DNA from: Heptranchias perlo
Taxonomy: Eukaryota
Direction: 5' to 3'
DNA: 64,000 nucleotides
Assembly (NCBI RefSeq): GCF_035084215.1
Contig: NC_090363.1
Span: forward strand, 11,346,001-11,410,000
The stretch's first letter is position 1. Each line of letters starts with the position of its first letter. The notes beneath the pieces are model-generated. The model worked only from the letters and a program-made list of their open reading frames with translations. It did not search any database and was not told where the DNA came from. Positions 13,616 to 57,849 of this stretch are shown here, piece after piece. A program made the translations under genes and the position numbers.

Positions 13616-13934
13616 CTGCGACCGAGTTCGAAGTGACGTCAGGAATCAGATCGGGACGCGACACAGGGGAGGCACCTGATTGGTGAGTAGGTTCAGGTGA
13701 GTATTTCTCCTTCTCTGCAGTAACTGAAGTAAAAGGAAAGGGAAGGTCTGCAGGTCTTATAGGAAGTAGCGTTTATTTTTTAGTGAATCAAGGTCCCTAG
13801 TGTAGTTAACATTCTCTAAATTGAGAACAATTTAAAGGAGTAAACTCCTTAAAGGGAGTGGTAAGTAGTTTTTCTTTCCTTTTTTTTTTCTCTTGACATT
13901 GTAGTTGTTCTTAAGCTAATTTAAGGGTTAAGTC

Positions 13935-14882
13935 ATGGCAGGAGATCCCAGCGCCGTGTCATGTTCCTCTTGTGGGATGTGGGAATTCAGGGCTCCTTCC
14001 TGTATCCCTGATTCCTTCACCTGCGGGAAGTGTGTCCAGCTGCAGCTATTGTTTGACCGCTTGACGGCTCTGGAGCTGCGGATGGACTCACTTTGGAGCA
14101 TCCGCGATGCTGAGAAAGTCGTGGATAGCACGTTCAGTGAGTTGGTCACACCGCAGATAAAAATTACTGAGGGAGATAGTGAATGGGTGACCAACAGACA
14201 GAGGAAGAGTAGGAAGGCAGTGCAGGGGTCCCCTGCGGTCATCTCCCTCCAAAACAGGTATACCGTTTTGGATACTGTTGGCGGAGATGGCTCACCAGGG
14301 GAAGGTGGCAGTGGCCAGGTTCATGGCACCGTGGCTGGCTCTGCTGCACAGGAGGGCAGGAAAAAGAGTGGCAGAGCTATAGTGATAGGGGACTCGATTG
14401 TAAGGGGAATAGACAGGCGTTTCTGCGGACGCAACCGAGACTCCAGGATGGTATGTTGCCTCCCTGGTGCAAGGGTCAAGGATGTCTCGGAGCGGCTGCA
14501 GGACATTCTGGAGGGGGAGGGTGAACAGCCAGTTGTCGTGGTGCATATAGGCACCAACGATATAGGTAAAAAACAGGATGAGGTCCTACAAGCTGAATTT
14601 AGGGAGTTAGGAGTTAAACTAAAGAGTAGGACCTCAAAGGTAGTAATCTCAGGATTGCTACCAGTGCCACGGGCTAGTCAGAGTAGGAATGACAGGATAG
14701 CTAAGATGAATACGTGGCTTGAGAGATGGTGCAAGAGGGAGGGATTCAAATTCCTGGGCCATTGGAACCGGTTCTGGGGGAGGTGGGACCAGTACAAATT
14801 GGACGGTCTGCATCTGGGCAGGACTGGAACCAATGTCCTAGGGGGAGTGTTTGCTAGTGCTGTTGGGGAGGGTTTAAACTAA
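13935..14882 (+). CDS. CR1 ORF1p: N-terminal zinc finger, coiled coil, SGNH/GDSL esterase domain
   Basis: CSSC...CGKC zinc finger; SGNH blocks IVIGDS, PGARV, HIGTND, DGLHL. Intact, 315 aa. Confidence 0.9.
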   Translation: MAGDPSAVSCSSCGMWEFRAPSCIPDSFTCGKCVQLQLLFDRLTALELRMDSLWSIRDAEKVVDSTFSELVTPQIKITEGDSEWVTNRQRKSRKAVQGSPAVISLQNRYTVLDTVGGDGSPGEGGSGQVHGTVAGSAAQEGRKKSGRAIVIGDSIVRGIDRRFCGRNRDSRMVCCLPGARVKDVSERLQDILEGEGEQPVVVVHIGTNDIGKKQDEVLQAEFRELGVKLKSRTSKVVISGLLPVPRASQSRNDRIAKMNTWLERWCKREGFKFLGHWNRFWGRWDQYKLDGLHLGRTGTNVLGGVFASAVGEGLN

Positions 14883-17830: not shown

Positions 17831-18627
17831 CTTAGTGGTATAAACTGGGCGACATGGACATGTTGGGCCGAAGGGCCTGTTTCCATGTTGTAACTTCTAT
17901 GATTCTATGATTCTATGTGCTCCCTAAAATTGTAACGATAGGATAAATCCTTCCCAAACGCACCACGCTCAGAGATTCTCAAGTGGACGACGACAGTATT
18001 TGCAACACAACTGGAAACCGACATAATTGGGTTCTTGGGTTCCGGAAATTGTTAGAGAGCGTGATTCCGCTTCCGAACCCACCACACCCACTCCCCACCT
18101 CTCCAAGTTCCATCCTCAACTTCTCATTTCAAGATATATTCATATTAGGAAGCTTTATGGCTCCTTGTCATGAAGCAGTGTGATCTGTAGAAGTCTCCAA
18201 GCTTCTGTCATCAAGGGAAATCGGGGAATTCTATCCCGCAGAAAGAACATCGCGGGATGTACTCGGGTGGAATGTGAAATGATGGTGAGCTCTGTCCATC
18301 CGCTAATTAATGGCGAGCGACACTCTGCAAATTGCCAACATCCTGTCAATCTCACTCAGGCTGTTTGGGGAAAGATAACGAAAACTCCTAGCAGTTCAGT
18401 AGTTGCTGAGGAATCTTCTTGTTCCAGAATAGAGAGAGCTTTACTCTGCATTCACCGTGTGCTTTATTTGCAATGATTCATGTGGATGTTGGAATATAAT
18501 CTGCTCCATTGCCTTTAATTTTTCGCATCTCACCTTGTACATAAAACATTCTCATATTTCCGATGAGAAATAACTACTTGATCGCTTTTTTTGCACTGGT
18601 GAGCCACGTTTTTTATGACCTCGGAAG

Positions 18628-22444: not shown

Positions 22445-25400
22445 ATGGGACGGGCTCCAATACTGTACTTAAAAGAAATCAGCTATCCGATTCTGGCAGT
22501 GTTCGGTGTTCCTGGTAAGTGATAATTATACTTTTAATTTTGTGTGTTATTGCTCTTTCCCAATGTGTTGGAAATGCAGCCGATTTATCTGGGGGTCTTT
22601 GTTGCTGAGTTGCCTGTATTCTGATATAATTTTCATGAACTGCTTCCTCTATCTCTGTGATATTTGTATTGGATGATCTTTTATTGAAGTTATATTTTTT
22701 CGTGTTCTATTACCTTGAAATAAGGATCTAGACTGCGGCTCAGCGGTAGTATTCCCGCCTCTGAGTCAGGAGGTGAAGGGTTGGAGTCACACTCTGGATA
22801 GCCTAGGCAAGTGGAGGCTAGAATAAGGTCTCCAATAATGGATTGCATCCAGCGGGGTACTCCGGATTGGAAGGAGTGGTCGAATGCCCGCCTCTGAGCC
22901 AGAAGGGTTGGGTTCGGGTCCCACTCCTGATTGCTCGGTCAAGCAGTGACCAGAGTGTAGGCTCTGAATTGATGTCCAGCAGGGATACATGATATGGATG
23001 GGCGTTGTAGCAGATTCAGACGTGACACTAAATGGTAATCAATGTCTCATTTATTAATATATAAATCAAACGTGTAAAGGTATCAAAGATCAAAACAACA
23101 TTATCCCATTTTGATCTCTGGGCAGAGGTCGTAATTAAGTTGGCAACATGGTCGTTTCAGGCTTTCCGACAGTGAGGTAGTCTTCTGATGGTCAGGTGTT
23201 CTTCTGACAGTAAGGTGTCATCTTCAGACAACTAGGTGTGCTTCAGACAGCAAGGTGTTCTTCTGAGAGCTAGGTTTCCTTCTGATCGCCAGGTGTGCTT
23301 CTGATAGCTAGATGTTCTTCTGATCGCTCGGTGTGCTTCTGATAGCGAGTTGTGCTTCTGATAGCTAGCTGTGCTTCTGATAGCCAGCTGTGTTTCTGAT
23401 AGCGAGTTGTGCTTCTGATAGCTAGCTGTGCTTCTGATAGCGAGTTGTGCTTCTGATAGCGAGTTGTGCTTCTGATAGCCAGCTGTGCTTCTGATAGCTA
23501 GCTGTGCTTCTGATAGCGAGTTGTGCTTCTGATCGCTCGGTGTGCTTCTGATAGCTAGGTGTGCACCTGATAGCGAGTTGTGCTTCTGAGAGCTAAGTGT
23601 GCTTCTGATAGCTACCTGTGCTTCTGTTAGCTAGCTATGCTTCTAACAGTTCGGTAGCCTTCTGACAGCTGGGCGGGCTTTGCTGAATCCTCTGACCCGA
23701 GCTCAAAATACGTTGGGTTTATATGTCTCCCTTGGCAGGAACCTCCCACCATATATGGAACAATATTCACAAGATCCTTATCGAGTAACAAAGTTGTGTT
23801 TCAAAGAATTCAAGATAGTCAGCTTGTTTTAACATTACTCATTTAACCACAAGACTCTTTGCAATGTTATTTTTCAAGGTGACCAGTTTGTTTGTCCCTG
23901 TCGTCTCGCTATCTCGTCATGGTCCTGGTCTTATCGATATCTTTGGGTTATTGTTCCGCTTTTTGGGTCATTGTTCCTCTTTTGCTACATATCTGCCTTG
24001 CTGCATAGTGAGGGCAACAAGGGTCAGTCACGAGTCAAAGGTTAACTATTTATAATTCAGCAAATTAAGTTACACACTCGGCAAAATACACAGCACAGTC
24101 TGCAGAGCAAGATGGTTAGTAGCATTGGAAATACGTCAATTTTTCTCTATTTCCAATATTTTTACAGTGCCGGTGCACCCCCTCCTCCCATTGTAAAGGA
24201 TATGTGGGGCTCTTTAGTTTAGTTTAGTGTTAGCCTTGGCTCAGTGGTAACACTCTCCCCGCTAAGTCAAAAGGTTGCGGGTTCAGGTCCCACTCCAGAG
24301 ACTTTGAGCGCATAATCTAGGTTATCTCTTCAGTGCAGCACTGAGGGAGTACTGCGCTGTCTTTCAGATAAGAAGGTAAACTGAGGCCCTGTTTGCCCTC
24401 TTAGCTGGACATAAAGGATCCCATTGCACTTTTCGAAGAAGTGCAGGCAAGTTCGCCCCAGTATCCTGCCCAATATTTATCCCTCAACCAATATCTAAAT
24501 AACAGATTATCTGGTCTTTATCTCATTGCTGTTTGTGGGTGCTTGCTGCCTTCCATTTCCTGTGTTACAACAGAGACTAAATTTCAAAGGTACTTCATTG
24601 GCTGTAAAGCGTTTCCTGACATCATGAGGTCGTGGAAGGCGCTATATAAATGCAAGTTGCACCTTTCTTTCTTTCGTAATGGATTTTCAAACTCCGACCG
24701 AATCCCTCGCTCCACAGTCGGCATTCAGTGTGGCCGTTCGCATGCATTTAATACAATAACCAATGACTTGTCGGTGGCATGTTCTTCGGTTTACCAGGTC
24801 ATTCTTCCCATTCCCTTCAGTCATTTACCTCCATTAAAGTCACTTCTATCAAAGCAATCAGTTACCTTCCCAGCACAGTGATCTGCTCCGTTTAATTGAC
24901 CATTTCCCTGTTGTTTCGTGTCCTACAGCGAACCTGATGACGGCTGTGATCCTGTCCCGGGGAAAGTGCGGTCTCTCCAGGGGAATCACGCGTTACATGG
25001 TGGCCATGGCAATCTCAGACCTACTCGTGCTGACCTTTCATGTACTGCTTCAACACATCTTTACTTATCATTTCCCCAAGTCATTCCTGTTCCACACTGC
25101 AGTCTGCCCTTCATACACCTACATGAAAATCATTATTCTGGATTGCTCCGTCTGGTTAACAGTGTCGTTCACCTTTGACCGTTTTGTCAGCATTTGCTGT
25201 CAGAAGCTGAAACTCAGATATTGCACGGAGAGAACTGCTGCTGTGGTTATTCTGACCATGTGGGTACTGAGCTGTTTAAAGTACGTCCCGTTTCACTTCA
25301 TGTATGAGCCCCGCTTTGTCATTGACAACGTACCATGGGGCTGCCGGCCCAAAGCGGTCTTCTTCACTTATCCAGCCTGGGTGGCTTTCTCCTGGATCTG

Positions 25401-25848
25401 CAGTCTCTCCACCTCACTGCTCCCGTTCTTTCTCATCTTGCTGTTCAACGGCCTCACGATCAGACACATCCTAGCGGCCAGCAAAGTCCGCAGGGCTCTG
25501 AAGGGACTGAGCGGCGGGCAGAACCACGGCGACAGCGAGACGGAGAACAGGCATAAATCCATCGTCTTACTCTTCTCTGTGACCGGCAGTTATATACTGT
25601 TGTGGATGACAGCAACGGTGACTTACATGTTCACGAAGATCACAACGAATGTTTTGGACCAGAATCACACAAGCCCCGCATACATCGCCAATCATGTTGG
25701 AGTTGTGCTCATGCTCACTAGTTCTTGTGCAAACACGTGTATTTATGGAATGACCCAATGCAAGTTCAGAGAGGAGGTGAAGAACGCGGTTACATATCTG
25801 CCAGTTCGAGTTATTAAATTAATAAAATTAAAACTACAATCGGGCTAG
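22445..25848 (+). CDS. GPCR-C: class A GPCR, GPR139/GPR142-like, 2 exons (22445-22514, 24929-25848), 329 aa
   Basis: Exon 1 MGRAPILYLKEISYPILAVFGVP ends at a G|GTAAGT donor. Acceptor GTCCTACAG|CG joins to ANLMTAVIL. 7TM with FTFDRF, WGC and SCANTCIY. Same phase-1 intron position as A and B. Confidence 0.88.
23006..24167 (-). mobile_element. Probable solo LTR (ERV/gypsy-like), antisense within the GPCR-C intron
   Basis: TGTA...TACA ends. On the minus strand, TATAAA at about 23723-23718 precedes AATAAA at about 23055-23050 (U3-R-U5 order). No clean TSD recognised. Confidence 0.4.
23180..23670. repeat. 19-bp minisatellite (TGTGCTTCTGATAGCTAGC consensus)
   Basis: About 25 tandem units, more degenerate at both edges. 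Confidence 0.85.
24232..24673 (+). mobile_element. tRNA-headed Deu-domain SINE (SacSINE1-like)
   Basis: A-box TGGCTCAGTGG, B-box-like GGTTCAGGTCC, Deu core, AAGGCGCTATATAAATGCAAG tail. Confidence 0.8.
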
Positions 25849-30199: not shown

Positions 30200-30373
30200 T
30201 TCAAAGGTCCAAACTCACCTTATTTGGCAAAGAGAATCACCCTTCCGTTGGCGTATTTGAGGTCCTGTACAAACACGTGTATTTATGCATTGACCCAGAG
30301 GCGATTCCGAGTGGAGATGAAGAATATGGTGAAATATCCATTTACTCTCATTATTAAATTATTTAAGCAATGA
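30200..30373 (+). pseudogene. 3' remnant (ECL3-TM7-helix 8-stop) of a fourth GPR139-like GPCR, closest to GPCR-B
   Basis: Reads FKGPNSPYLAKRITLPLAYLRSCTNTCIYALTQRRFRVEMKNMVKYPFTLIIKLFKQ*. Followed by about 400 bp similar to the GPCR-B 3' flank. 5' part absent. Confidence 0.85.
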
Positions 30374-33048: not shown

Positions 33049-36000
33049 TTAGTGACCTTTAACCCCGCAGATTGTCAGTGGCGCTGAGTTTTCCCCGCCG
33101 TCACTCCATCCCGGATGGAAGATCGGAAAGATTCTCTCAGTGAAAGTGTGGGTGAAAGTGTGGAGATGGGACATGTTGTCCGCATTGTAAAATGACACCT
33201 GTCCACCCTCATAGTCCAGGTACACCCCGATCATCCGGAGCTTTACACTCGGGGTGAGGGGTGTGTCATAGGGGGAGGTGGCGGCAAAATAACCACTTCC
33301 AGGCTCCAGCCACACAATCCAGTATCCGGACTCAGGTCTCGGGTCGATGTTCCCTTTCCTGTTAACAGACTCTCGGGCCACTCCCACACTCCAAGTCTGG
33401 TTCCCCACCTCCACCTCCCAGTAGTGTCTCCCTGATGTGAATCCCTCCGATCCCAGGACACAGGCCCAGCGATCAAACCTCTCCGGGGTGTTAGGGAGCG
33501 GCTGCCGTTTCTCTCCGAGTCTCACACTGGTCCGGTCCTCAGACACAATGAGCCGGGGATTCGCTGTGTTCGGATCCAGAGTCAGAGAGGCTGGAGCTGG
33601 GGGAAGGTTAAAATAACACAGTCAGTGAGTTAGTTTCTTGCTGTGATTTATTCAAACACTTTCCTGTTTAAAGTGCCCACTCGGGGGACTCCCAGTACCT
33701 CTGGTGATTTTAAAGGGCTCCAGGTTCTGTTATTGGAATCTGCTCCCACACGGGGGTTTACGCTCCTGGGGCCGCTCTGACTTCCCAACCCGGTCAGAGC
33801 TGAGCGGGGACCGGGCGCACATTGTATTTTATTTTTGTCTTTCTTCAGCCCCTGGCGCCCTGCTTCGACACCGACCCGCCACAAGAAACCCTACGGCTCC
33901 CCGAGGCCCCTGTGGTTCTCAGCCCCTGCAGAGTGACCCACGGTCCTATAGAAATAAACAAGGAACCGGCACCAAGAGGCTCCGATATGATTTGGAGGCA
34001 CAATCTCGGCCCGGAGACGTTGGGCATAACTTTTACTCTGTGCCGGGTACTCAGTGCTCCCGCAGTTATTTGCGTGGGGAACCCAGAAGCGAATTGAGTG
34101 CATCGCAATCTGCGATCACAACTCAACTGAAGGTGAGTGTTTGAGCTTTTGGGTTTCACACACACTGGGCAGCCAGAATGACAGGCTGGGGGCCAGTGGG
34201 CAGTGAAAGGAGATGCAAACCAGAGAGGGGCGCGGGAAGGATAGAGAGGTCATTGAAACTGCAAGAAAGCGGGGTGGAGGGGGTGCGATGGACGGCATGG
34301 GGGAGGGTCCAGCATCGGGGATCGGGGGTCAGCAAGCAACGGTGATGGCGGGGTCCAACATCGTGGAATGGGGATCGGCCGATCGCAGGGGTCCTATTGG
34401 CCAACTGAGCTTGTTGGGCCTGGATGAAGCACTCCTGCACCTCCGGGCCCACAAACATTGCAATAAAGGCACACATCTCATGGATCCGGTCCTTCCCGCC
34501 TGCTTTCACCTGACGTGAATCAGAAGCGATGAGAAACGGGAGCAAATAGGGGTAAATTCATTTTAACTGTCCAATACACCAAATATTAAGTACTCAAGTA
34601 TCTCAATTAGATACACTGCCCCTTTAAGTATCCGCCCACCGGCTTTAAGTGGGGGTGGGACTTCCTGGTGCCTGTTCTGCAAAGGCACACAAACCTGCCT
34701 GGGTTAATATATCCTACATAGAATTACATAGAATTTACAGCCTGAGAAAGGCCATTCGGCCCAGCAGGTCTAGGCCAGTCTTTATGCTCCACATGAGCCT
34801 CCTCCCTCCTTACTTCATCTCACCCTGTCAGCAGATCCTTCTATTCCTTTCTCCCTCATGTGTTTATCTAGCTTTCCCTTCAATGCTAATGTGGTGTTCG
34901 CCTCAGCCACTCCTTTTGGCAGCGAGTTCCACATTCTAATTGCTTTCTGAGTAAAGAAGTTTCTCCTGAATTCCCGATTGGATTTATGAGTGACCATCTT
35001 ATACTTAACTTTGGACTCCCGTTCTTAAGGGTTAAAATTTATCCCGTTAGCTCTGATATCCCCCACATCACCAAACAGCGCGATCAATGAGGGGAGAGGG
35101 GGGGATACAGACATCAGGGGGAAAGAAAGTAGTGAAGAAAAGAGGAAAAGAAAGGAGGGGAACAGCTGTAGAAGGGAAGAGAGAGCCAAGAGAGAGCGGG
35201 GGTGGGTAGGGGGACTGAACTCATCAGAGGGAATGGGATCAAGAACAGATCTCGCAGAGGGAGGGAGGGAAAGAGCTAAGGCGCGGCAAACAGTGGGGAA
35301 GGGAGAGAGTAAAGAGTTCAAGGGGAAAAGCAGAAAAGCAACGGGATAAAGAAGCTGCGGCCCACAACTCAATGTGTCCAACAGCCTGACCCGGAACTCG
35401 AGATAAACTGGAACAACCGGGCAGTCCCCAGATTCAGAGAAAACCGCCCCCTAACAGAAAAAACACCCTGCACATAACAAACCGACATCACCCTGAATAC
35501 AGCCCATCAAAAAAAATATATTCAGGAAACTCAACAGACTCCAACATATAATCAGGCAAAAAAAAACAGATGTACATAAAAGGAGAGGTGGAAGTGGCAT
35601 TTCTACAAGTGACCCTTCTCTCCACCCTCAGAACACACCAGGTTTATGAGTGAGTGGGTGGGACAAATGCTGGCAGCCTTCTACTCAGCCAAGAGCAGAG
35701 GGTAGTCACACCAATCAACAGGAACCTCCCTATTACTCTGGCGATACACATTCCTGGAGGCCGCTCCATCCTAATGGACTTCGAATAACAGGAGAACCCA
35801 AAGTGATGCTTCAATTCTGTGTCCCGAATGAGGAGTCTCCGCATTCTCCACATCAACATTCCTCACACTCGCCCCACGTATGGACAGCACAGTAACCATG
35901 AATGGAGACCTGAACTGTGCTCTTCACTCCCAATGGGAAAAACTCCCAGTGGACACAGGGCATGAGGACAAGCAGCCGGAGTAATTTGGGGACGAAGTAG

Positions 36001-39000
36001 TCACCTGGTCCCACACCAACTAATAGCTCCCCAAGCGAGTTTTACAAGGACCTAATCGTGGAGTTTACTCTCCTCCTACTGAAACACCTACACCGTGTGC
36101 TTGAGACAAGGACAAAGACACACTTGACTGAGTCACGATCATGTTAATCCATTTGAACAGAAAGATCGTCTCCCCGTGCTCATTGTCGAAAACTAAATTC
36201 CTCCTCAATGCTGACTAGAAAATATCGGTCAAGATCTTAACCGCCAGACATCTCCGGCCAGGTCCATGCAAACAAATAGGCTTCACACTAGGCCGCATGT
36301 GGAGGTATAACACCAGCGGCTATTCAATGTGCTGCCCCACTGTCATATCTCTACCCTGATACTCTCCCTGGATGCATAAAAGACATTCGTCTAGGGCGAG
36401 TGGAATATTTCCTCAAGAGAAATGAATGAATAAGGCTTGGTGATACTTTCAGGCAGTGGATTGCAATCCAGTGCCTGCTCCCCATGTTCACAGTGATTAC
36501 CAGCTGACTCCATACCCCTCAACCGTCCTCCTCCCTGAACGGGCAGACAAAGCCTCGTTCCCAGGCTTCCTCAGACTTCCTGTCCCGACCATGTTCATGA
36601 ACATGAATGTGGCACACAAGGTGGAGATACATCAGGAGGATGCCTTATTGGAGAGGAGGATAGGTTCTGCTGGGAAGGAGGGGAGTTGCCTCTTGCTGAA
36701 GTTTGCAAGGTATTGCTGTTTTCCGAGGGTCCCTGTATTGGTCATGTTGGGAGAGCTGAAATTTTCAGCTGACTGGTTGAAAGCGATGCTTTTTAGAAGG
36801 TGGATTTGGTGCATGAAAAACACTTTAATTCCACTCAGGGCCGGTTCTAACCGCGATGCTTTGCATCTACTTAGTACTAAAAGATACTCTAACATAAGGA
36901 AAATAAAAAATAGGAGCAGGAGTAGACCATACAGCCCCTCGAGCCTGCTCCACCATTCAATAAGATCATGGCCTATCTTCCACCTCAACTCCACTTTCCT
37001 GCCCGATCCCCATATCCCTTGATTCTTTTAGAGTCCAAAAATCTATCGATCTCAGCCTTGAATGTACTCAACGACTGAGCATCCACAGCCCTCTGGGGTG
37101 GAGAATTCCAAAGATTTACTACCCACTGATTGAAGAAATTTCTCCTCATCTCAGTCCTAAATGGCCGACCCCTTATCCTGAGACTATGCCCCCTCGCTCT
37201 AGACTCTCCAGCTAAAGGAAACAGCTTCTCAGCATCTACCCTGCCAAGCCCTGTCAAAATCTTATATCTTACAATGAGAGCACCTCTCATTCTTCTGAAC
37301 TCTATAGATTATAGGTCCATTTTACTCAATCTCTCCAGTTTGACATAATCTGATATACTATACGAAGAAATGAGCGAGAAATCGGAAGAAATGATCCTAT
37401 ATGAGTTTTACCGGGTTTGATGGCATCAATCATTTCTCTCCATACTGTGTACTGCAAAGGGCCGTTGAATTTTTCGATAGGCAGTGCGGCTTCTGCTAAA
37501 GACTGGATACGAAAGCCCTCGCTAATCCTGCAAATATTAAACAGTTGGTTATAAATTGACCAGAAACACCTTTCTGAGTTATTTTCCCAAACTGTGCAGA
37601 GTTTCAGTAAAGAGCATATCCTACCTCCTCTTCAGAAAACTTTTCTCCTGAAATAAATAAAACACAAATCTGAGTTGACAGACACTGACCGTCTATATCC
37701 GGACAGCAGAAATTGCACCCAGATTGTTCAAAGCTGCTGATAATACCGAATTCTCACTGCTGCCGCTGCACAAATGGAAAGAGACTATTACAAAAAGGTA
37801 CAGAAGCTTTGGAGAAGGTGGAAAAAAATGTTAAGGAATTATACCAGAATGAACAGGGTACAACTATCAGGAAAGACTAAACAGGCTGGGGCTCTCTTCT
37901 TTGGAAACGAGAAGACTGAGGGGTGACCTGATAGACGTCTTTAAAATTATGGCGGCGTGGATAGGGTGGATGTAGAGGAGATGTTTCCACTTGTGGCGGA
38001 GTCCAAAGCTAGGCGCCATAAATATAAGATAGTCACTAATAAAATCCAATCAGGTATTGAGGCGAAACTTCTTTACTCAGAGAGTGGTTAGAATGTGGAA
38101 CTCACGAGCACGTGGGGTGGTTGAGGCGAACAGCACAGATGTATTTAAGGGGAACCAGATAAGTACAAGAGGAAGAAAGGAATAGAAGGATATTCTGTTA
38201 GGGTTAGAAGAAGCAAAGTGGGAACAGGCTTGTGCGGAGCATAAACACCGGCATGGACCTGTGGGGCTGAACGGCCTGTTTCTGTGCTGCACATTCTTTG
38301 TAATTCTATGTGGGATATATTTGAAAACCAGACAGCAGAAATTACACCAAAATTATTAACAGCAGCTGATAGAAACAGGATATAGTTGATAAAATTTGAT
38401 TTGTGTCAGATTATGGAAGTCAACATCAGTCCCGCTCACAGACAAATAATGCCTCACCTTCAGAAATATCACACCGTCTTTTTCCTCCATCTGTTTTTGC
38501 AACTTTGAAAGCTTCTCCTGAATAGAATTTAAATTCTTTTGAATTTCTCGAAGATTTTCCTCCATTGGTTCTAGAATCCTCTCCTCTTCTTCCCTGAGAT
38601 CTCTGATTAAACGCTGCTCTTTCTCAGTGAGAATCTGGTGCATTTTAGCGAACTCGGATATGATGCGGGTCTGCAGACTGCTCGACTGTTCCTACAAAAT
38701 GAAATGTGAAAAATAATAATGTACCGCGATAAAGGAACAAAACTAACCGAGATCGCAGAGAATCAGCACAGGGAGACCTCACCCTAACTTTGGAAATCTG
38801 TTGCTTCTGTTTCAGTTCAGTTTCGAGAACCGCCGTTTTCTTCTCTGTGAGAGAATCTAAGGAAGATTTCAGCTGATCCTGGGATTGGGAGAAAAAATCA
38901 CAGAATGAAAGTGTTCGACCATGAAAAAGATTTAATAATCAGATGATCAAATATGTTCCCTTTTACCTTGTACATTTCAACAGCTTCTTTAATCGGCATG

Positions 39001-39377
39001 AAGCGGTGGTCTCTGTGTTCCCGCGCATCTCGACAAATCATACAGATCAGTTTCTTGTCAGTTTCACAAAACAGCTTCACTTCTTCCTGATGTTCCTCAC
39101 AGTGAAGTTTACTTTCCTTCTCTTCCGGATTCAGCTTTAATTTTCGAACTTTCTCGGCCAGATTTGCTAAGGCCCGATTGGCCCTGAAGTTTCTTTCCGA
39201 AAACTCCTCTCTGCATTCCGGGCAGGAGTTTGTTTCCTTCGGTTCCCAACACTGTGTGATACAGGAGCGGCAGAAGTTGTGCCCACACTCCAGTATAACC
39301 GGAGCAGTGAACAAATCAAGACAGATGGGACAAATTGCCTCCTCGGACAAACTCTCTGCCTGCCGTCTGGAAGCCAT
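33049..39377 (-). CDS. TRIM-1: RING-Bbox2-coiled coil-PRY/SPRY (B30.2) E3 ligase, class IV TRIM (TRIM39/A33/NF7-like). Exons 39377-38967, 38878-38783, 38691-38458, 37647-37625, 37527-37412, 33596-33049; 475 aa
   Basis: C3HC4 RING (CPIC...CGHNFCRSC...CPEC), B-box CEEH...C..C....[27 protein letters not shown]. All introns GT-AG with compatible phases. Exon sizes 411/96/234/23/116/548 fit the typical TRIM-B30.2 layout. Confidence 0.9.
34022..35045. mobile_element. Non-autonomous PIF/Harbinger-type element with 3-bp TSD (GTT); nested CR1 tail at about 34717-35015
   Basis: Imperfect TIRs GGGCATAACTTTTA / TAAAATTTATCCC. GTT at 34019-34021 and 35046-35048. Empty site with a single GTT at 46486-46488 in the TRIM-2 paralog. 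Confidence 0.8.
35350..36560 (+). mobile_element. Degraded L1-clade LINE ORF2 (endonuclease to RT) in TRIM-1 intron 5
   Basis: Degenerate ERVEVAFLQ, EWVGQ...SKSRG, NGDLN, PGHEDK-like, LLNAD*KISVKIL and SLDA*KTF motifs. Confidence 0.5.
36890..37335 (-). mobile_element. CR1 3' fragment
   Basis: [41 protein letters not shown]...; CATAAG tail. Confidence 0.85.
37780..38310 (+). mobile_element. CR1 3' fragment in TRIM-1 intron 3
   Basis: [14 protein letters not shown]; 3' UTR GGGCTGAACGGCCTGTTTCTGTGCTG. Only the first about 50 bp remain in the TRIM-2 intron (about 50975-51025). Confidence 0.8.
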
Positions 39378-45419: not shown

Positions 45420-48400
45420 TTAGTGACCTTTAACCCCGCGGATTGTCAGCGGTGCTGAGTTTTTCCCGTCGTCATTCAGTCCCGGACTGAAGATCGGAAG
45501 GAGTCCCTCAGTGAAAGTGTGGGTGAAAGTGTGGAGATGGGACATGTTGTCCGCATTGTAAAATGACACCTGTCCGCCCTCATAGTCCAGGTACACCCCG
45601 ATCATCCGGGGCTTCACACTCGGGGTGAGGGGGGTCCATGAGGGGTAGGTGGCGGCAAGATAACCACTTCCAGATTTCAGCCGCACAATCCAGTATCCGG
45701 TCTCAGGTCTTGCGTTAATCTCCTGTTTCCTGTTAATAGACTCTCGGGCCACTCCCACACTCCACCAAGTCTTGTTCCCCACCTCCACCTCCCAGTAGTG
45801 TCTCCCTGATGTGAATCCCTCCGATCCCAGGACACAGGCCCAGCGATCAGGGAGCGGCTGCCGTATGGTTGCGATTCTCACACGTGTCCGGTCCTCACAC
45901 ACAATGAGCTGGGGATTAAACCTCTCCGGGGTGTCAGGGAGCGGCTGCGGATTCCCTCCGTCTCTCACACTGGTCCGGTCCTCAGACACGATGAGCCGTG
46001 GATACGCTGTGTTCGTATCCAGAGTCAGAGAGGCTGGAGCTGGGGGAAGGTTAAAATAACACAGTCAGTGAGTGAGTTTCTTGCTGTGATTTATTCAAAC
46101 ATTTTCCTGTTTAAAGTGTCCACTCGGGGGATTCCCGGGACCTCGGGTGTTTTTAAAGGACTCCAGGTTCTGTTATTGGAATCTGCTCCCACCCGGGGGT
46201 TTACGCTCCTGGGGCCGCTCTGACTTCCTAACCCGGTCAGAGCTGAGCGGGGACCGGGCGCACATTGTGTTTTATTTTTGTCTTTCTTCAGCCCCTGGCG
46301 CCCTGATTCGACACCGACCCGCCACAAGGAACCCAGCGCCCCCTCGCCCTCCCCACTCCACCCCATCCAGAATCCCATGTGGTTCTCAGCCCCTGCAGAG
46401 TGACCCACGGGCCTGTAGAAATACACAAGGAACCGGCATCAAGAGGCTCCGATGTGACTTGGAGGCACAATCTCGGCCCGGAGACGTTACCCCTGAAATC
46501 CCACATCACCAATCAGCTCGATTGATGAGGGGAGATGGGGGAGGGGGAGGCGGAAATAAGAAACCAGAGGGAAAGAAAGGAAGAAAAGGTGAAAGAAGTA
46601 AAAAGTAAGGAGGGAACTGCTGCAGAAGAGAAGAAAGAACCGAGAGAGAGTGGAGGGGAACTAAACTCATCAGAGGGAATGGGATCAAGAACAGATCCCG
46701 CAGAGAGAGGGAGGGAAAGAGCTAACGCGGGGCAAACAGTGGGAAAGGGAGAGAATAAAGAGTTCAAGGGGAAAAGTAGAAAAGCAAGGGGATAAAGAAG
46801 CTGCGGCCCACAACTCAATGTGTTCAACAGCCTATCCCGGAACACGAGATAAACTGGAACAACCGGGCAGCCCCCAGATTCAGAGAAACCCGCCCCCCAA
46901 CAGAAAAATCACACTGGACACAACAAACCGACATCACCCTGAATACAGTCCATCAACAAAATTATATCCAGGAATCTCACAGACTCCAACACAAAATCAG
47001 CCAAAACAAAACGGATCTCCATAAAAGGAGAGGTGGGAGTGTCATTTCTACAGGAGACCCTCCTCACCATTTGTGAACTGCTGCAGCCACAACTGCAGCC
47101 TCAGAGCAGGGCTCGGACATCATTGCTTGTGGATGTCAATGTAACCGTGGCACTGAACTTTTATGGCTTTGGATCATTTCAGGCCTCTGCTGGCGATATT
47201 CTTGACAGAGAGAAGCAGAATGAGCGAGCACGAGTGTGTGCCGCATTGCAGGCTTCCCCATGGTGCAGGGTGTCATTGACTGCACGCATGCAGCCATGTG
47301 TGTTCCATATCTCAACTCAGCCATCTTTATTAACAGAAGGGGTTCCACTCCCCCAATGTGCAGCTGGTGTGCGACCACACGCAGTGCATCATGCAGCTCA
47401 GTGCCTGCTACCCTGGCAGCAGTCATGATGCGTTCGTTATGCGGCAGTCCAACGTCCCAACTATCTTTGAACCGGCTCTGCTAGTCAATGGCTGGCTACT
47501 GGGTGACAAGGGCTATCCCCTCATGAGCTGGCTCATTTCTCCAGTCAGGCACACATGCACACGCACAGAGCAGGCCTATAATGGGAGCCATGCAGCCACA
47601 TGAAACGTCATCGAGCACACCATTGGCATCTTAAAGCAACGCTTCCGCCGCCTGGACCGTTCTGATGGGGACCTGCGTTACTCAGCTGAGCAGGTGTCTC
47701 GATTCGTTATGGAATGTTGCCTACTGCAGATCCTCGCCCTTATGAAGGAACAGCCCTTGCCACCACCAATCTGGCAAGACCCTGAGGCAGAGGCAGAGGG
47801 GGAGGAGGACGTGGAAGAAGTGGAGGAAAAGGATGAGGAGGAAGAGGAAGAGGCAAGGAGGCAACAAGATGCACTGGCCCTGTCTGCCAGGGCTCTGCAT
47901 GCTCACCTTATTCATGAGCGATATCTGTAACCTCATTGACACCTCCCAACTCACCAACAGTCTTACACTCCTCACCTTTCCACTCCCTCTTGACCATCAA
48001 ATCGCCCTTCATACAATTACACATTGGTTCCTCCCGCAGCTTATCACATAAATAAAAACCAACACCAACTGTGACTTCAAATACAAATTCATAACGTTAC
48101 ACATTAACTCAAGTATAAAACATTACATTGTTCACCCTTGTGAATTCCATAAGTGCCTGTCGTTCATCTGCCTTTGCCCTTCCTGGTGCTCCTCCGAGGT
48201 GCATCCCCTGTGGTTGGAGCATGGGTGGTGGAAGGCTGCTGACCTTCAATTGAGGTGTGTGCAGATGGACTTGGAGGACAAACACAAGCAGCTGTGGGCC
48301 AGAAGAGTCCGGCTTCAGCCTGCACCATGGGCTGCAGCAGTCTGGCCTGGCTGGCTGACAGGCAACAGCAAGGGTACTGACAGAGTGGCAGGGGTGTGAG

Positions 48401-51400
48401 CAGCAAAGCTGTCATCCAGACAGAGGGCAGCAGGTTCAACTGCCATGGCGCCACAGCCACTCGAATGGGGCAAGAGCAGCAGGCACATGGGAACAACACC
48501 ACCTGCACGTTCCCCTCCAAGTCACACACCATCCCGACTTGGAAATATATCGCCGTTCCTTCATTGTCGCTGGGTCAAAATCCTGGAACTCCCTTCCTAA
48601 CAGCACTGTGGGAGAACCGTCACCACACGGACTGCAGCGGTTCAAGAAGGCGGCTCACCACCACCTTCTCAAGGGCAATTAGGGATGGGCAATAAATGCT
48701 GGCCTCGCCAGCGACGACCACATCCCGTGAACGAATAAAAAAAAAGCTACTCACCAATCCTGGTGTTCAACTGAAGGGCAGATGGATGGAGTGCTCTGAC
48801 GCCTTGGAAGCCAAATTCCACAGTAGTGCCAACAGCCACGATAGCAGCAGTCTGCACTTCTAAAGCAGCAATCCGAGCTTCAATTGAAGCATGAAGAGCT
48901 TTGATGACATCGGATGGTGCTGCAGTGGAAGTCGTGGTATCGGCCATCCGGAGTTGCATCTTATGGGTTCCTCAGGTGTGCTGATGGAGGTGATCACCCA
49001 TTCCATGTGGGTAAGGATGGGCTCCCAGCTCTGCGCAAAGCCCTGTGCCAAGTTTGAGGTGACTCCTCCATGCCCCTTGACATTGCATGCAGGCTTTCTG
49101 GCAGGCTTTCCAGTGTGTCAAGCATTTGGTAGTGTAGGCCCATCAGCAGTCCTCTGTAGCCTGGCCCATCAAAGTCATCATCTGACAGCAGAAACATTGT
49201 GCGACCTTGCACACCGGTGGAGCTGGCATCTGTGGTATCTGCTCACCCCGCACCGGCTGCTGTGCACTTGTGCCCGATGTCTCACCACATGCAGATCCCT
49301 ACTCTAACCGAGCCTCAACAATATGTGTAGCATCAGTATCCGAGCTGTTGGCTGTGAGTGTCAGAACAAGTGATGGTGTGGCTTCATTGTCATTGTCTTC
49401 CTCCTCCACCTTGGATGGTGCCAGCTCCAGTCTTGGGTATCTGCAATGACAAAAGGAGATGGGTTGAGTTGTTGAGCCGGGAGAGGAGCAACTATGATGT
49501 GCGTGCTGACACCATCTACAGCACGTGAGTCAGAAAAGATTGTGGGATGTGGGAGATAAGATGCAGAATTAGGTTTGTAAAGACACCCTGCATTGTGACC
49601 TCCAGCGCCACCAGTGGCCACGGCCGCAGCGACAGCCTGTCCAATTATAAGAAGCACGGTCTCCTCCAGGGGAGTGCAGATGTGTCGGTGCGCCCATCCT
49701 CCCTCAGGTCTTTCATGCTACCAGCTCTTATGTGCCACCTCCTCCGGTAAGACAGAGGGAAGTGTACCAGTGAGTGTCCTGCAAGATGTTTGGATGATGT
49801 GCCTGTTGTGGGCGAAGAGCTGCCAGTGTGTGTGACCTGTGGGTGGTGGGTCAGTGGGTTGCAAGTGTGGTAATATTTGAGGGTGAGATGCAGCCTGCAA
49901 AGTGCTGCATTGCATACAGATGGGCAGCGTTTGTTGGTCGATGGGTGACTGGGTGTGTCATGGTGAAGTCATGTTGTGGTTGGTAGAACGTGTCACTTGA
50001 CACTTGCATTCACTCACCTTGACCACTCGCGTCAAATCATTGAACTTGTTCCAGCACTGCACCCACGTGCGTGGTGCAATGCTCCTGACATTCACCTCCA
50101 TGGCAACTTCCTCCCACTGCCTCCGCAGCTCGTGTCTGGAGGGTCTTCTGCCACCCTGTGGGTACAGGATGGCTCTCTGTTCATCCGCTGCCCCCACCAG
50201 GGCCTCCGCTGAGCTGTCGGAGAACCTCGATGCACGCTCTCTTGCCGGTCCAGCCATTTTACTTGTTAACCTCCACTGTTTGCATTTGCAGTGCACTTCC
50301 CCTTTAAGAAGTGCAGGCTGCCTTTAACTAGTCCGGGCCACGCCCCATATCGAGCCTCCTGGTGGGTGCAGTCTCTCGCCAAGGATAGCTCTGGCTGCAG
50401 GTACAAATAATGGAAATGAGCCTGAAGCACGAATCTCGCCTCCTGCCTGCACCGGAAACACCGGGCGCGGGTTATTCGCACACCGCGACCCTCGCGTCCG
50501 AATTTGCGCGTTTGCGAATTTAACCCCCACTCTCTTTGCTTTAATCTGATTCGTTATAATAAGAAATGAGTTATAAATCAGGACAAAGAAACATATAGGA
50601 CGTTTACCGGGTTTGATGGCATCAATCATTTCTCTCCACACGGTGTACTGTAAAGGGCCGTTGAATTTTTCGATAGACAGGGCGCCATCTGCTAATGACA
50701 GTAAATTATCTTCCTCGCTCATCCTGCAAATATTCAACAATTGGTTATAAATTGACCATAAACACCTTTCTGAGTGATTTTCCCAAACTGTGCAGAGTTT
50801 CAGTAAAGAACATGTCCTACCTCCTCTTCTGACAAGTTTTCTCCTGAAATAAATAAAACACAAATCTGAGTTGACAGAAACTGACCATTTATATCCAGAC
50901 AGCAGAATTACTCCAATTTGTGACAATCTGTTGATAATTCTGAATTCTCACTGCTGCCGACACGCAGATACAGAGATGACATTACAAAAAGGTACAGAAG
51001 CATCGGAGAAAGTGCAAAAAGTTCGATGTAGGATATATTTGAAAGCCGGACAGCAGAAATTACACCCAAATTATTAAATGCTTCTCATAGAAACAGGATA
51101 TGGCTGAAAAATCTTAATTGTGTCAGACGATGGAAATCAACATCAGTCCCCCTCACAGACACAGTGACTCTCACACCCACCGGACCAGACACACCCACAC
51201 ACTCACTCAATGTAACTGTAACTGCATTGCAATGTGAGTTTCAGGAGAATATTAAACTCTTGGGCGACACGAAAATAATTACAAGCTAAGTATCAAGATC
51301 AGGGCAATTCATTCCCGGGATGGTTGCTGGTATTCCCGGGATTCTGTAGACATTGTGTGAGGCCCATTAGTTCGGTGACAATAAAAGATCCGCCTCGGAA

Positions 51401-52451
51401 TAGACAAAAAAATCGATCGATTTAAAACAGTCCCGAATTATCTGGAAATTCAGCATTTACTTCAAAATTTTTGCTCATCATTTTGTGACTGTGAACATTC
51501 ACTGAACTAAACTGAAATATAATCATCACCTTCAGAAATATCACACCGACTTTTTCCTCCATCTGTTTTTGAAACTTTGAGAGCTTCGCCTGAATAGAAT
51601 TTAAATTCTTTTGAATTTCTCGAAGATTTTCCTCCATTGTTTCGAGAATCCTCTCCTCTTGTTCCCTGAGATCTCCGATTAAACGCTGCTCTTTCTCAGT
51701 GAGAATCTGGTGCATTTTAGCGAACTCGGATGTGATGCGGGTCTGCAGACTGCTCGACTGTTCCTACAAAATGAAATGTGAAAAATAATAATGTACCGCG
51801 ATAAATGAACAAAACTAACCGAGATCGCAGAGAATCAGCACAGGGAGAACTCACCATAACTTTGGAAATCTGCTGCTTCTGTTTCACTTCAGTTTTCAGA
51901 ACCGCCGTTTTCTTCTCTGTGAGAGAATCTAAGGAAGATTTCAGCTGATCCTGGGATTGGGAGAAAAAATCACAGAATGAAAGTGTTCGACCATGAAAAT
52001 GAGATAAAATAATCAGGTGATCAAATCTGTTCCCTTTTACCTTGTACATTTCAACAGCTTCTTTAATCGGCATGAAGCGGTGGTCTCTGTGTTCCCGCGC
52101 ATCTCTACAAATCATACAGATCAGTTTCTTGTCAGTTTCACAAAACAGCTTCACTTCTTCCTGATGTTCCTCACAGTGAAGTTTACTTTCCTTCTCTTCC
52201 GGATTCAGCTTTAATTTTCGAGCTTTCTCGGCCAGATTCGATAAGGCCCGACTCACCCTGAAGTTTCTTTCCGGAAACTCCTCTCTGCATTCCGGGCAGG
52301 AGTTTGTTACCTTCGGTTCCCAACACTGTGCGATACAGGAGCGGCAGAAGTTGTGCCCACACTCCAGTATAACCGGATCAGTGAAGAAATCAAGACAGAT
52401 GGGACAAATTGTCTCCTCGGTCCAACTCTCTGCCTGCGCTCTGGAAGCCAT
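45420..52451 (-). CDS. TRIM-2: RING-Bbox2-coiled coil-PRY/SPRY tandem paralog of TRIM-1. Exons 52451-52041, 51950-51855, 51763-51530, 50843-50821, 50723-50608, 46039-45420; 499 aa
   Basis: Same domains, splice sites and exon sizes as TRIM-1 (411/96/234/23/116). Last exon is 620 nt because of a 69-nt and a 3-nt in-frame insertion. No stops in the joined frame. Confidence 0.9.
47067..47930 (+). pseudogene. Harbinger (HARBI1-like) DDE transposase, frameshifted, with a stop
   Basis: [64 protein letters not shown], spread over several frames. Confidence 0.85.
48465..48745 (+). mobile_element. L2/CR1-group LINE 3' tail inserted in the Harbinger Myb gene
   Basis: Close match to the tail of 21105-22110, ending CATCCCGTGAACGAATAAAAAAAA. 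Confidence 0.85.
50018..50257 (-). pseudogene. Harbinger Myb/SANT-like DNA-binding protein, exon 1 (downstream exons at about 48170-49745 decayed)
   Basis: [21 protein letters not shown]...WEEVAMEVN...[13 protein letters not shown] followed by an AAG|GTGAGT donor; typical trihelix/Myb_DNA-bind_5 pattern. Confidence 0.8.
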
Positions 52452-52637: not shown

Positions 52638-52750
52638 TGCAGGCAATTGGGACTAGCTTCGTGGTATAAACTGGGCGACATGGACATGTTGGGCCGAAGG
52701 GCCTGTTTCCATGTTGTAACTTCTATGATTCTTATGATTCTATGATTCTA
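52638..52750 (+). mobile_element. Very short 5'-truncated copy of the young CR1 family at 12782-17917
   Basis: Nearly identical to about 17812-17917, including the (GATTCTAT)n tail. Confidence 0.9.
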
Positions 52751-53944: not shown

Positions 53945-56735
53945 CACCACTCCCTCTCCCATTACTGCACCCTCCCTCTCCCCATCACTGCTCCCTTCCT
54001 CTCCCCATCACTGCTCCCTCCCTCTCCCCATCACTGCTACATCCCTCTCCCCATCACTGCTCCCTCCCTCTCCCCATCACTGCTCCGTCCTTCTCCCCAT
54101 CACTGCTCCCTCCCTCTCCCCATCACTGACCCCTCCCTCTCCCCATCACTGCTTCCTCCCTCTCCCCATCACTGCTCCCTCCCTCTCCCCATCACTGCTC
54201 CCTCCTTCTCCCCATCACTGCCCCCCCTCTCCCCATCAATGCCCCCTCCCTCTCCCCATCACTGCTCCCTCCCTCTCCCCATCACTGCTCCCTCCTTCTC
54301 CCCATCACTGCCCCCCCTCTCCCCATCAATGCCCCCTCCCTCTCCCCATCACTGCTCCCTTCCTCTCCCCATCACTGCTCCCTTCCTCTCCCCATCACTG
54401 CTCCCTCCCTCTCCCCATCACTGCCCCCTCCCTCTCCCCATCACTGCTCCCTCCCTCTCCCCATCACTGCTCCCTCTCCCCATCACTGCTCCCTCCCTCT
54501 CCCCATCACTGCCCCCCTCTCCCCATCACTGCCCCTCCCTCTCCCCATCACTGCTCCCTCCCTCTCCCCATCACTGCCCCTCCCTCTCCCCATCACTGCC
54601 CCACTCTCCCCATCACTGCCCCACTCTCCACATCGCTGCCCCCTCCCTCTCCACATCACTGCCCATCCCTCTCCCCATCACTGCCACTCCCTCTACCCAT
54701 CACTGCCCCCTCCCTCTCCCCATCACTGCCCAATCACTGCCCCCTCCCTCTCCCCATCGCTGTCCCCACCCTCTACCCATCACTGCCCCCTCACCCACCC
54801 TATCACTGCCCCTCCCCATCACTTCCCCCTCCATGTGCCCATCACTGCCCCCTTCCGCTCCCCATCACTGCTATCTCCCTCTTCCCATCACTGCCCCCTC
54901 CCTCTTCCCATCACTTCCCCCTCCCTCTCCCCATCACCGCCCCCTCCCTCTCCCCATCACTGCCCCCTCCCTCTCCCCATCACTGCCCCCTCCCTCTCCC
55001 CATCACCGCCCCCTCCCTCTCCCCATCACTGTCCCCTCCCTCTCCCCATCACTGCCCCCTCCCTCTCCCCATCACTGCTTCCTCCCTCTCCCCATCACTG
55101 CCCCCTCCCTCTCCCATCACTGCCCCCTCCCTCTCCCATCACTGCCCCCTCCATCTCCCCATCATTGCCCCCTCCCTCTCCCCATCACTGCTCCCTCCCT
55201 CTCCCCATCACTGCTCCCTCGCTCTCCCCATCACCGCCCCCTCCCTCTCCCCATCACCGCCCCCTCCCTCTCCCCATCACTGCCCCCTCCCTCTCCCCAT
55301 CACCGCCCCCTCCCTCTCCCCATCACCGCCCCCTCCCTCTCCCCATCACTGTCCCCTCCCTCTCCCCATCACTGCCCCCTCCCTCTCCCCATCACTGCTT
55401 CCTCCCTCTCCCCATCACTGCCCCCTCCCTCTCCCATCACTGCCCCCTCCCTCTCCCATCACTGCCCCCTCCATCTCCCCATCATTGCCCCCTCCCTCTC
55501 CCCATCACTGCTCCCTCCCTCTCCCCATCACTGCTCCCTCGCTCTCCCCATCACTGCTCCCTCCCTCTCCCATCACTGCTCCCTCCCTCTCCCATCACTG
55601 CTCCCTCCCTCTCCCCATCATTGCCCCCCTCCCTCTCCCCATCACTGATCCCTCCCTCTCCCATCACTGCTCCCTCCCTCTCCCCATCATTGCCCCCCTC
55701 CCTCTCCCCATCACTGCTCCCTCCCTCTCCCCATCACTGCTCCCTCCCTCTCCCCATCACTGCTCCCTCCCTCTCCCCATCACTGCCCCCTCCCGCTCCC
55801 CATCACTGCTCCCTCCCTCTCCCCATCACTGCACCCTTCCTCTCCCCATCACTTCCCCCTCCCTCTCCCCATCACTTCCCCCTCCCTCTCCCCATCACTG
55901 CTCCCTCCCTCTCCCCATCACTGCTCCCTCCCTCTCCCCATCACTGCGCCCTCCCGCTCCCCATCACTGATATCTCCCTCTCCCCATCACTTCCCCCTCC
56001 GTCTCCTCATCATTGCCCCCTCCCTCTCCCCTTCACTGCTCCCTCCCTCTCCCCATCACTGCTCCCTCCCTCTCCCATCACTGCTCCCTCCCTCTTCCCA
56101 TCACTGCTCCCTCCCTCTCCCCATCACTGCTCCCTCCCTCTCCCCATCACTGCTCCCTCCCTCTCCCCATCATTGCCCCCCTCCCTCTCCCCATCACTGC
56201 CCCCTCCCTCTGCACATCACTGATCCATCCCTCTCCCAATCAATGCCCCCTCTCTCTCCCTATCACTGCCCCCTCCATTCCCCCATCACTACCCCTCTCT
56301 CTCCCCATCACTGCCCCCTCCCCCTCCCTCTCCCCATCGCTGCCCCCTCCCTCTCCCCATCACTGCCCCCTTCCTCTCCACATCGCTGCCCACTCCCACT
56401 CCCCATCACTGCCCCCTCCCTCTCCCCATCACTGCCTCTCCCCATCACTGCCCCCTCCCTGTCCCTGTCACTGCCCCCTCCCGCTCCCCATCATTGCTAC
56501 CTCCCTCTTCCTTTCATTGATCCATCCCTCTCCCGATCATTGCCCCCTCCCTCTCCCCATCATTGCCCCCCTCCCTCTCCCCATCACTGATCCCTCCCTC
56601 TCCCCATCACTGCTCCCTGCCTCTCCCAATCACTGCCCACTCCCACTCCCCATCACTGCCCCCTCCCTCTCCCCATCACTGCCCCCTTCCTCTCCTGATC
56701 ACTGACCCCTTCCTCTCCCTATCACTGCCCCCTCC
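53945..56735. repeat. About 2.8-kb C-rich 23-bp minisatellite (CTCCCCATCACTGCCCCCTCCCT)n
   Basis: More than 100 variant units. Preceded by a MITE-like end (GGGCCTAGAAATT at about 53582). Confidence 0.95.
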
Positions 56736-57849
56736 CTCTACTCTTTCACTCTCTTTTCTTTATCTCTATTTTTTCTCATTTTTCTCCGTGCAATCGCCCA
56801 ATGAGCACAAAATGGAGCACAGCTGGAAATCACCAAAATGGCCTCACTTGCAACTATCACTAAACGGCCTCACTTGCACCTAACACAAAATGACCCCCTT
56901 GCACCTAACGCAAAATGGATGTCCTACTATGTAAGTCCCACCACACCTCCCCCGCCCCCCTCCAATGTAATGCTACTCCCAGCTCCCACTAGGAAGCTGC
57001 AATAAAAATTTAAAAATTAGTGACCTGGATTTCTTCTGGCTGTGGATTCATCTTGCCATAAATTTCTCTGGACATGAATTGGACAAAATGGAGCCCAGCT
57101 GGAAATCAACAAAATGGCCTCCTTGCACCTCACACAAAATGGCCCCCTTGCACCTAACACAAAATAGCCCCCTTGCACCTAACACAAAATGGATAATCTC
57201 ACCTAATGCTAAATGACTGTCCAGAATCTAAATGGAGAGTGAGAGAGAAGCCTGGAGATACACCAGTAGGGAGGCAGAGATCAGGGGTTGCAGAGGGAGC
57301 ATAAAAGAGATAAGAACAATAGGTACAGAATTAAAGAGACACACAGAGGCTAACTGGAATTCTAAGCCTTTACACACAGGAGGATCCGAGCCCCAGACAT
57401 ATCCCTCACCGCAGAAAGATGCTCCTCCCATCACCACAGGGAATCACAAACTCAAGCTTGGTATCCCTTATCCCTGAACAGAGAAAGATAAGAGAACAGA
57501 GAGAAGGGAAGAGAGACACAAATATTGGGTGACATAGGAACAGGAGGAGGCCATTCAGCCCCTTGAGCCTGTTCCACTGAACGGTTGGATCATGGCTAAT
57601 CTATACCTCAACTCATCCACAAGAGGGAGAGAGAGAGGGAGAGACGGTGAGGGGAGCAAAGATGAAGAGAGAGGAATAAACATTGGGGTAGGGTTTGACT
57701 TTACGCGATAGTGTAAACTGGGTGATGCTAAATGGGCCACCTGTTTTACATCTCTCCCTATTTTTACCTCAATGGGAAAAAAAACTTGGGCTCCCAATTC
57801 ACTGTCACCCATTTTACACTATCACACAAAGTCAGCATCTACCCCCAGT

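Follow-up and report, generated by a model that had tools for sequence, protein, structure and literature searches.

A diverged in-frame copy of a PRY segment in the B30.2 domain of a sevengill shark TRIM gene

Results

The window, a stretch of 64,000 nucleotides from Heptranchias perlo, a sevengill shark, carries two TRIM genes arranged head to tail on the minus strand, here called TRIM-1 and TRIM-2 (Table 1). When the six coding exons of TRIM-2, whose internal ends are all AG/GT, were joined, the reading frame gave exactly the 499-aa NCBI model P0014, and six coding exons of the same plan in TRIM-1 gave the 475-aa P0050. The products of both genes are named 'zinc-binding protein A33-like' in the database (XP_067830181.1 and XP_067830182.1). 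Pfam recognised the RING (zf-RING_UBOX, 6.4e-12) and the B-box (zf-B_box, 2.8e-09) of TRIM-2, and PRY and SPRY were both above the cut-off, with PRY matched in two stretches as against one in TRIM-1. Between the B-box and the B30.2 domain, exons 2 to 5 aligned to the paralogs without gaps. TRIM-2 is a class IV TRIM (RBCC-B30.2) by its N-terminal RING and B-box and its C-terminal B30.2 fold, and it belongs to the shark A33-like/TRIM39-like expansion. A tree was built from 31 selected rows, of which 16 were from the same species and 15 from other sharks; in it, P0014 fell inside a ten-member same-species clade with a support of 100/98. The shark class IV TRIMs listed as 'zinc-binding protein A33-like', 'TRIM39-like' or 'nuclear factor 7-like' have, as TRIM-2 does, a RING, a B-box, a putative coiled-coil region, PRY and SPRY. 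They are about 476 aa long and occur as tandem paralogs, and the single-domain ones are 68-83% identical to TRIM-2. Among the listed members of the expansion, TRIM-2 alone has gained 23 aa by the repetition of a PRY segment.

The other elements of the window are also given in Table 1. The three intronless GPCR frames were about 52% alike, and no solved relatives of them were found at E 1e-15. The transposon remnant in intron 5 of TRIM-2 had no counterpart in TRIM-1; its terminal repeats were looked for and none was found.

Table 1. Coordinates of the TRIM genes, the repeated PRY segment and other elements of the window
Feature	Position	Strand	Splice ends	Remarks
TRIM-2 first coding exon	52041..52451	-		411 nt from ATG; RING and B-box
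TRIM-2 exon 2	51855..51950	-	AG/GT	96 nt
TRIM-2 exon 3	51530..51763	-	AG/GT	234 nt; putative coiled-coil region
TRIM-2 exon 4	50821..50843	-	AG/GT	23 nt
TRIM-2 exon 5	50608..50723	-	AG/GT	116 nt
TRIM-2 exon 6	45420..46039	-	AG acceptor	620 nt; whole PRY-SPRY (B30.2) domain and stop codon
Copy A, native PRY segment	45936..46004	-		69 nt; residues 306-328
Spacer (DTPERF)	45918..45935	-		18 nt; conserved Arg-Phe anchor, present once
Copy B, in-frame insert	45849..45917	-		69 nt, 23 aa; residues 335-357 of the 499-aa protein
TRIM-1	33049..39377	-		Intact neighbouring paralog without the insert; last exon 33596-33049
Harbinger-like transposon remnant	about 47100-50500			TRIM-2 intron 5
Myb/SANT frame of the remnant	49961-50323	-
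DDE_Tnp_4 piece of the remnant	47604-47927	+		Weak, below cut-off
Rhodopsin-class GPCR frame	2723-3724	+		Intronless
Rhodopsin-class GPCR frame	10088-10999	-		Intronless
Rhodopsin-class GPCR frame	24838-25848	+		Intronless
Fourth GPCR fragment	near 30203-30367			Broken
LINE	12782-17917	+		Near-complete; tandem repeats at 5' end
LINE first frame	13932-14882			Esterase-type
LINE endonuclease/reverse-transcriptase frame	15053-17830
LINE-like piece	52638-52744			107 nt, 98% like the LINE 3' end; just upstream of the TRIM-2 start
Minisatellite	53950-56739			23-nt unit repeated 122 times; lies 1.5 kb upstream of where TRIM-2 starts

The original prediction described a 23-aa in-frame internal duplication in TRIM-2, and the frame at 46064-45420 (minus strand) translated exactly as it had claimed. 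Its further claim that the 69-nt insert is missing from TRIM-1 was borne out by the exon alignment, which contained one 69-nt gap at this place and, besides it, one 3-nt gap further on. TRIM-1 itself (33049-33596, minus strand) shows an in-frame loss of 3 nt, one codon in the loop after YWEV that is still present in TRIM-2 and in 14 further same-species paralogs of the alignment. The native segment (copy A) and the insert (copy B) share 53 of their 69 nt. When 69-nt stretches of an exon were matched to each other without gaps, the best match reached 54 of 69 in the TRIM-2 exon and 32 in the TRIM-1 exon, and 500 codon shuffles of the exon gave at most 40 (mean 33); the likeness of the two copies is therefore above chance. 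Copy B contains four K/R, two D/E and one new Cys. Since the copies are offset by 87 nt and DTPERF is present once, the insert is not a head-to-tail repeat; Tandem Repeats Finder likewise reported nothing at the insert. The single set of DTPERF codons implies either a templated insertion or a duplication of the full 87 nt followed by the loss of 18. The insert was also considered as a hidden intron and this was rejected: the GT at 45921 and the AGs downstream of it, which lack a pyrimidine tract, would excise 64 or 103 nt, and either length would break the frame. What TRIM-2 presents is a 69-nt PRY sequence copied in frame to a point 87 nt downstream in an intact gene.

It is extremely unlikely that the insert is an assembly artefact, whether through false duplication or through the joining of two paralogs into a chimera. 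The cluster is dense, its paralogs are 85-95% identical and the NCBI model itself depends on an assembly, all of which would favour such an error. However, false duplications are near-identical, whereas 16 of the 69 nt distinguish copy A from copy B. In addition, copy B matched none of 21 other same-species domains above 16 of 23 residues, and the frame is kept at both junctions of the insert.

In order to place the insert within the family, we surveyed the distance from the start of PRY to the VLG strand in 446 proteins. These came from overlapping lists of best matches only (120 of 3605, 120 of 1052, 120 of 5935 and 150 of 4965) and six cluster members. The survey yielded 595 domain instances in 444 of the 446 proteins, and 565 were measured after 30 without a usable PRY anchor had been dropped. 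Among these listed matches, the spacing was 41-45 residues in 557 of 565 B30.2 domains and exactly 43 in 522; four domains were shorter and four longer (51, 53, 66 and 83). P0014, with a spacing of 66, was the only one of the 565 measured domains with two PRY anchors. Three other proteins showed extra residues that may be annotation errors: P0351 has a lengthened domain in which the VLG-to-FEV segment is repeated, P0311 from a catshark carries eight extra, unrelated residues in the loop of the insert, and P0396 has ten extra residues after the VLG strand. The insert was absent from 21 other domains of 19 same-species proteins. The named matches included no other hexanchiform shark, so the insert could be common to that order unseen; its best reading is as a lineage-specific one.

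We then considered the insert relative to the ligand pocket. In the AlphaFold2 model it lies between strands 32-35 and 78-80, at the end of the predicted loop between the second and third PRY strands. We take the v1 region of TRIM5alpha to end at about the same point as this loop. The assignment of the insert to the V1 region by the original prediction agrees with this position, as papers on fish TRIMs treat the beta2-beta3 loop as the counterpart of the hypervariable region of TRIM5alpha; the equivalence was taken through the accessible part of one such paper (PMC3137616) and the model strands. As reported there, positively selected sites of fish btr and trim35 fall in the beta2-beta3 loop and match the TRIM5alpha region (PMC3137616).

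The closest solved relatives listed were TRIM21, pyrin and BTN3; TRIM5alpha was not among the matches listed (the best 60 of 94 by sequence and 50 by structure). The PRYSPRY domains of TRIM21, pyrin (TRIM20) and BTN3A1 are the closest solved folds (Z 26-29 among the 50 matches listed) and have a short V1-type loop, without a counterpart of the 23-aa insert; their ligands, such as IgG Fc and phosphoantigen, are specific to those proteins. Across the insert region, the TRIM-1 domain aligned with TRIM21 without gaps. Y328 and M330 of TRIM21, which have been reported among the residues near pocket-bound ligands in the part of the source available (PMC12647892), correspond to W360 and C362 of TRIM-2 by a hand derivation from structural chain numbering, three and five residues past the insert. 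R359, which adjoins the insert junction, is among the eight SPRY-region sites with five or more residues in 16 same-species paralogs. Because Y328 and M330 map just after the insert, the latter would sit at the rim of the pocket and could there either enlarge the binding surface or shield it. On this modelled position, the insert probably alters ligand access of the B30.2 domain.

The two copies were not equivalent. Among 369 distinct family segments, copy A outscored 166, copy B 28 and the TRIM-1 segment 302. The Arg and Phe of TPERF are 98% conserved in the family and copy B lacks TPERF altogether; in addition, it has Cys in place of a 99% conserved Ser and Ala in place of a 78% conserved Gly. 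The original prediction had also stressed that the copies diverge at their tips. The tips do differ, but part of this is ordinary paralog variation, since the DGG tip of copy A is common to paralogs (DGG in 3 of 21 same-species paralog domains, a D-G start in 8 of 21). AlphaFold2 of the B30.2 domain with an 85-row alignment gave a mean pLDDT of 84, with 136 of 214 residues at 90 or more, and the modelled core superimposed on TRIM21 with Z 29.2 and rmsd 1.5 over 181 residues. The AlphaFold check proposed with the original prediction thus indicates a fold that would tolerate the insert. In the best of five models, copy A supplies strands 24-26 and 32-35, and domain residues 50-69, in copy B, have a pLDDT under 50 and no predicted strands. 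This alignment is biased: none of its 84 partners carries the insert and all were aligned on copy A, so the model could hardly have placed copy B in the core. A single-sequence AlphaFold run, which is free of that bias, produced no usable fold (mean pLDDT 32.4). The sequence argument for copy A in the core is stronger than the model argument.

These data run against the last claim of the original prediction, that the domain offers 'two distinct V1-like surfaces': copy B is without TPERF, carries Cys at the conserved Ser and is predicted to be unstructured. Such surfaces would arise if copies A and B alternated in the core, or swapped across a dimer, so that either tip was displayed. Copy B does keep 14 of the 23 residues of copy A, among them L, I, V and V at hydrophobic positions of the strands. 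However, the B register would have neither TPERF nor the conserved Ser and Gly, and the best of the five models, within the bias of its alignment, uses copy A. We consider an alternation of this kind very unlikely.

The history of the copies was then approached through their distances. Over the 69-nt segment, copies A and B differ at 16 nt, copy A and TRIM-1 at 8, and copy B and TRIM-1 at 10, so that copy B is nearer to TRIM-1 than to copy A. Eight sites are private to copy B and six to copy A, and there is no site at which A and B agree against TRIM-1. The whole-gene synonymous distance between TRIM-1 and TRIM-2 is 0.08, and their non-coding segments diverge by 2% to 29%, or by 11% when all 1744 columns are taken together. 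For a copy that arose after TRIM-1 and TRIM-2 had split, 16 differences would have P = 0.0001 at 8.2% divergence and P = 0.047 at 15%. A young duplication under an even clock was rejected, as 16 differences are too many and no site unites A and B against TRIM-1. On these distances, either the copy would be old, or its template would be a TRIM-1-like paralog, or both copies would have sped up. The age of the insert is loose, at 4.3 synonymous differences over 18.9 sites.

The first position of the copy B tip is one base from the Leu codon of TRIM-1, and the comparison of the tips leans towards a paralog donor or a later gene conversion of copy A. The same-species paralogs are visibly mosaic. 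The SPRY of TRIM-2 (45420-45848, minus strand) is an example, its first half being nearest to P0046 (8 differences) and its second half to P0043/P0242 (9), and this mosaic suggests gene conversion within the TRIM cluster. No exact donor was found among the known paralogs (21 other same-species domains), the best reaching 16 of 23 residues. A separate template for the copy B tip was sought and rejected, the one match being of 10 nt, at 28642, and taken as chance. At the 3' junction, a TGA triplet stands at both ends of the 18-nt spacer, and ATC is shared near the 5' junction, provided that a single transition occurred afterwards. We infer a template switch during repair or replication, aided by these 3-nt microhomologies, which are common by chance; the template would have been either TRIM-2 itself, at an early date, or a paralog resembling TRIM-1.

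With regard to gene integrity, no pseudogenising damage was seen in frame: the reading frame, the splice sites and the RING and B-box motifs of TRIM-2 are intact. At the columns that are at least 90% conserved (n=256), TRIM-2 departs at 9, an ordinary load given a median of 7 (quartiles 5-11.75) in 106 full-length relatives. In neutral simulations at 0.04 changes per site, the frame stayed open in 16 of 1000 runs with frameshifts and 82 of 1000 without; it stayed open in 89 of 1000 at 0.02 and in 319 of 1000 at 0.01. Between TRIM-2 and TRIM-1, dN/dS was 0.88 overall, 1.08 in B30.2 and 1.22 in exon 1, values near 1 that show no net purifying selection. The pairwise dN/dS of copy A and copy B was 1.02, on counts too small to reject neutrality. 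Copy B differs from TRIM-1 by 8.5 non-synonymous and 1.5 synonymous differences (pairwise dN/dS 2.27 on 10 differences). In our reading, the domain has tolerated the insert, which has drifted more quickly than the core.

The insert may instead have harmed the domain or the pocket, and TRIM-2 would then be a silent or decaying duplicate still without a stop codon. The whole-gene dN/dS, the adjoining pocket residues, a family that almost never alters its PRY-VLG spacing, the transposon remnant in intron 5 and the many near-redundant copies in the family are consistent with this. Nevertheless, the intact frame, splice sites and motifs, the ordinary load at conserved columns and the high confidence of the modelled domain core speak against it, and a neutrally evolving frame would seldom have stayed open since the paralog split, should the insert date back that far. 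We regard such damage as quite unlikely.

Discussion

The explanation that fits best, and that we hold to be somewhat more probable than all others together, is a tolerated, lineage-specific loop extruded at the pocket rim of an intact TRIM-2. Copy A and TPERF would build a normal PRY in which copy B cannot replace them, and copy B would loop out as a flexible 23-residue extension that ends the V1-equivalent loop. TRIM-2 would still act as a class IV TRIM, its B30.2 domain binding a target that its RING ubiquitinates, and the copy B loop may shift or partly screen the access of the ligand.

The insert is best compared with the duplication in the B30.2 domain of primate TRIM5alpha, for which Song and Nakayama 2005 are said to be the original papers. 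This precedent, to which the original prediction appealed, is real and causal: in the accessible parts of the sources, African green monkey TRIM5alpha needs its 20-aa v1 duplication in order to restrict SIVmac, and transfer of the duplication is enough to confer this restriction (PMC12230231, PMC3264904, PMC11281341). The same texts describe gain-of-function indels of TRIM5alpha as uncommon and dependent on context, with 3 enriched among 396 library variants (PMC12230231, PMC3264904, PMC11281341). In TRIM-2 as in the monkey gene, a segment of comparable length has been duplicated in frame within the same variable B30.2 loop. However, the v1 loop of TRIM5alpha is long and disordered and often changes in length, whereas the parent loop of TRIM-2 is short and almost fixed. 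The TRIM-2 copy, unlike the TRIM5alpha duplication, is offset by an 18-nt spacer and carries two core strands along. For TRIM5alpha, the ligand (retroviral capsid) and the effect have been shown.

Among teleosts, btr (TRIM39-like), finTRIM and trim35/hltr are class IV TRIM families of many genes in tandem, whose B30.2 loops have diversified and for which the available portions of the papers describe substitutions, recombination and whole-domain gains and do not describe internal loop duplication (PMC2657112, PMC3137616); positive selection has been reported in their beta2-beta3 loop (PMC3137616). A literature search over titles and the starts of abstracts, with few subscription journals covered, found no B30.2 loop insertion of this kind in fish or sharks, and within the same limited coverage of subscription journals no ligand or functional study of the shark A33-like TRIM family.

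Selection could also have kept the insert for a new binding specificity, with copy B folding on binding or as an extra hairpin. The loop is that of the TRIM5alpha duplication and the size is similar, and the sites under positive selection in fish btr and trim35, as far as the accessible text goes, fall in the same beta2-beta3 loop (PMC3137616). The 16 of 69 nt that separate copies A and B exceed the expectation for a copy younger than the paralog split, the differences of copy B from TRIM-1 are mostly non-synonymous (8.5 to 1.5), and survival of an insert is unusual where spacing is almost fixed (557 of 565 measured domains). However, a dN/dS of 1.02 between the copies rests on counts too small to reject neutrality, and their excess distance is equally explained by relaxed structural constraint or by another paralog as donor. 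Moreover, the insert is known from one gene of one species, and no ordered structure is predicted for copy B. An adaptive expansion is therefore, in our judgement, unlikely, though it deserves serious consideration. It is rather unlikely, in turn, that a TRIM of a cartilaginous fish acquired a new target when the PRY/V1 segment of a neighbouring paralog was grafted onto its own pocket rim, which would give one B30.2 domain with the loop sequence of two paralogs. If this were true, it would be an independent, non-mammalian case of the TRIM5alpha-type indel route to antiviral specificity, in a class of loops of near-frozen length.

Indels in v1 of TRIM5alpha can give antiviral specificity in one step, according to the part of the source available (PMC12230231). 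The insert of TRIM-2, with its insert-free close paralogs as controls, offers a test of the indel route outside primates and in a short-loop B30.2 domain of the TRIM21/pyrin type, and it draws attention to a large, fast-changing cluster of shark TRIM genes. Even if the loop is neutral, the insert still marks where a B30.2 domain tolerates a large insertion.
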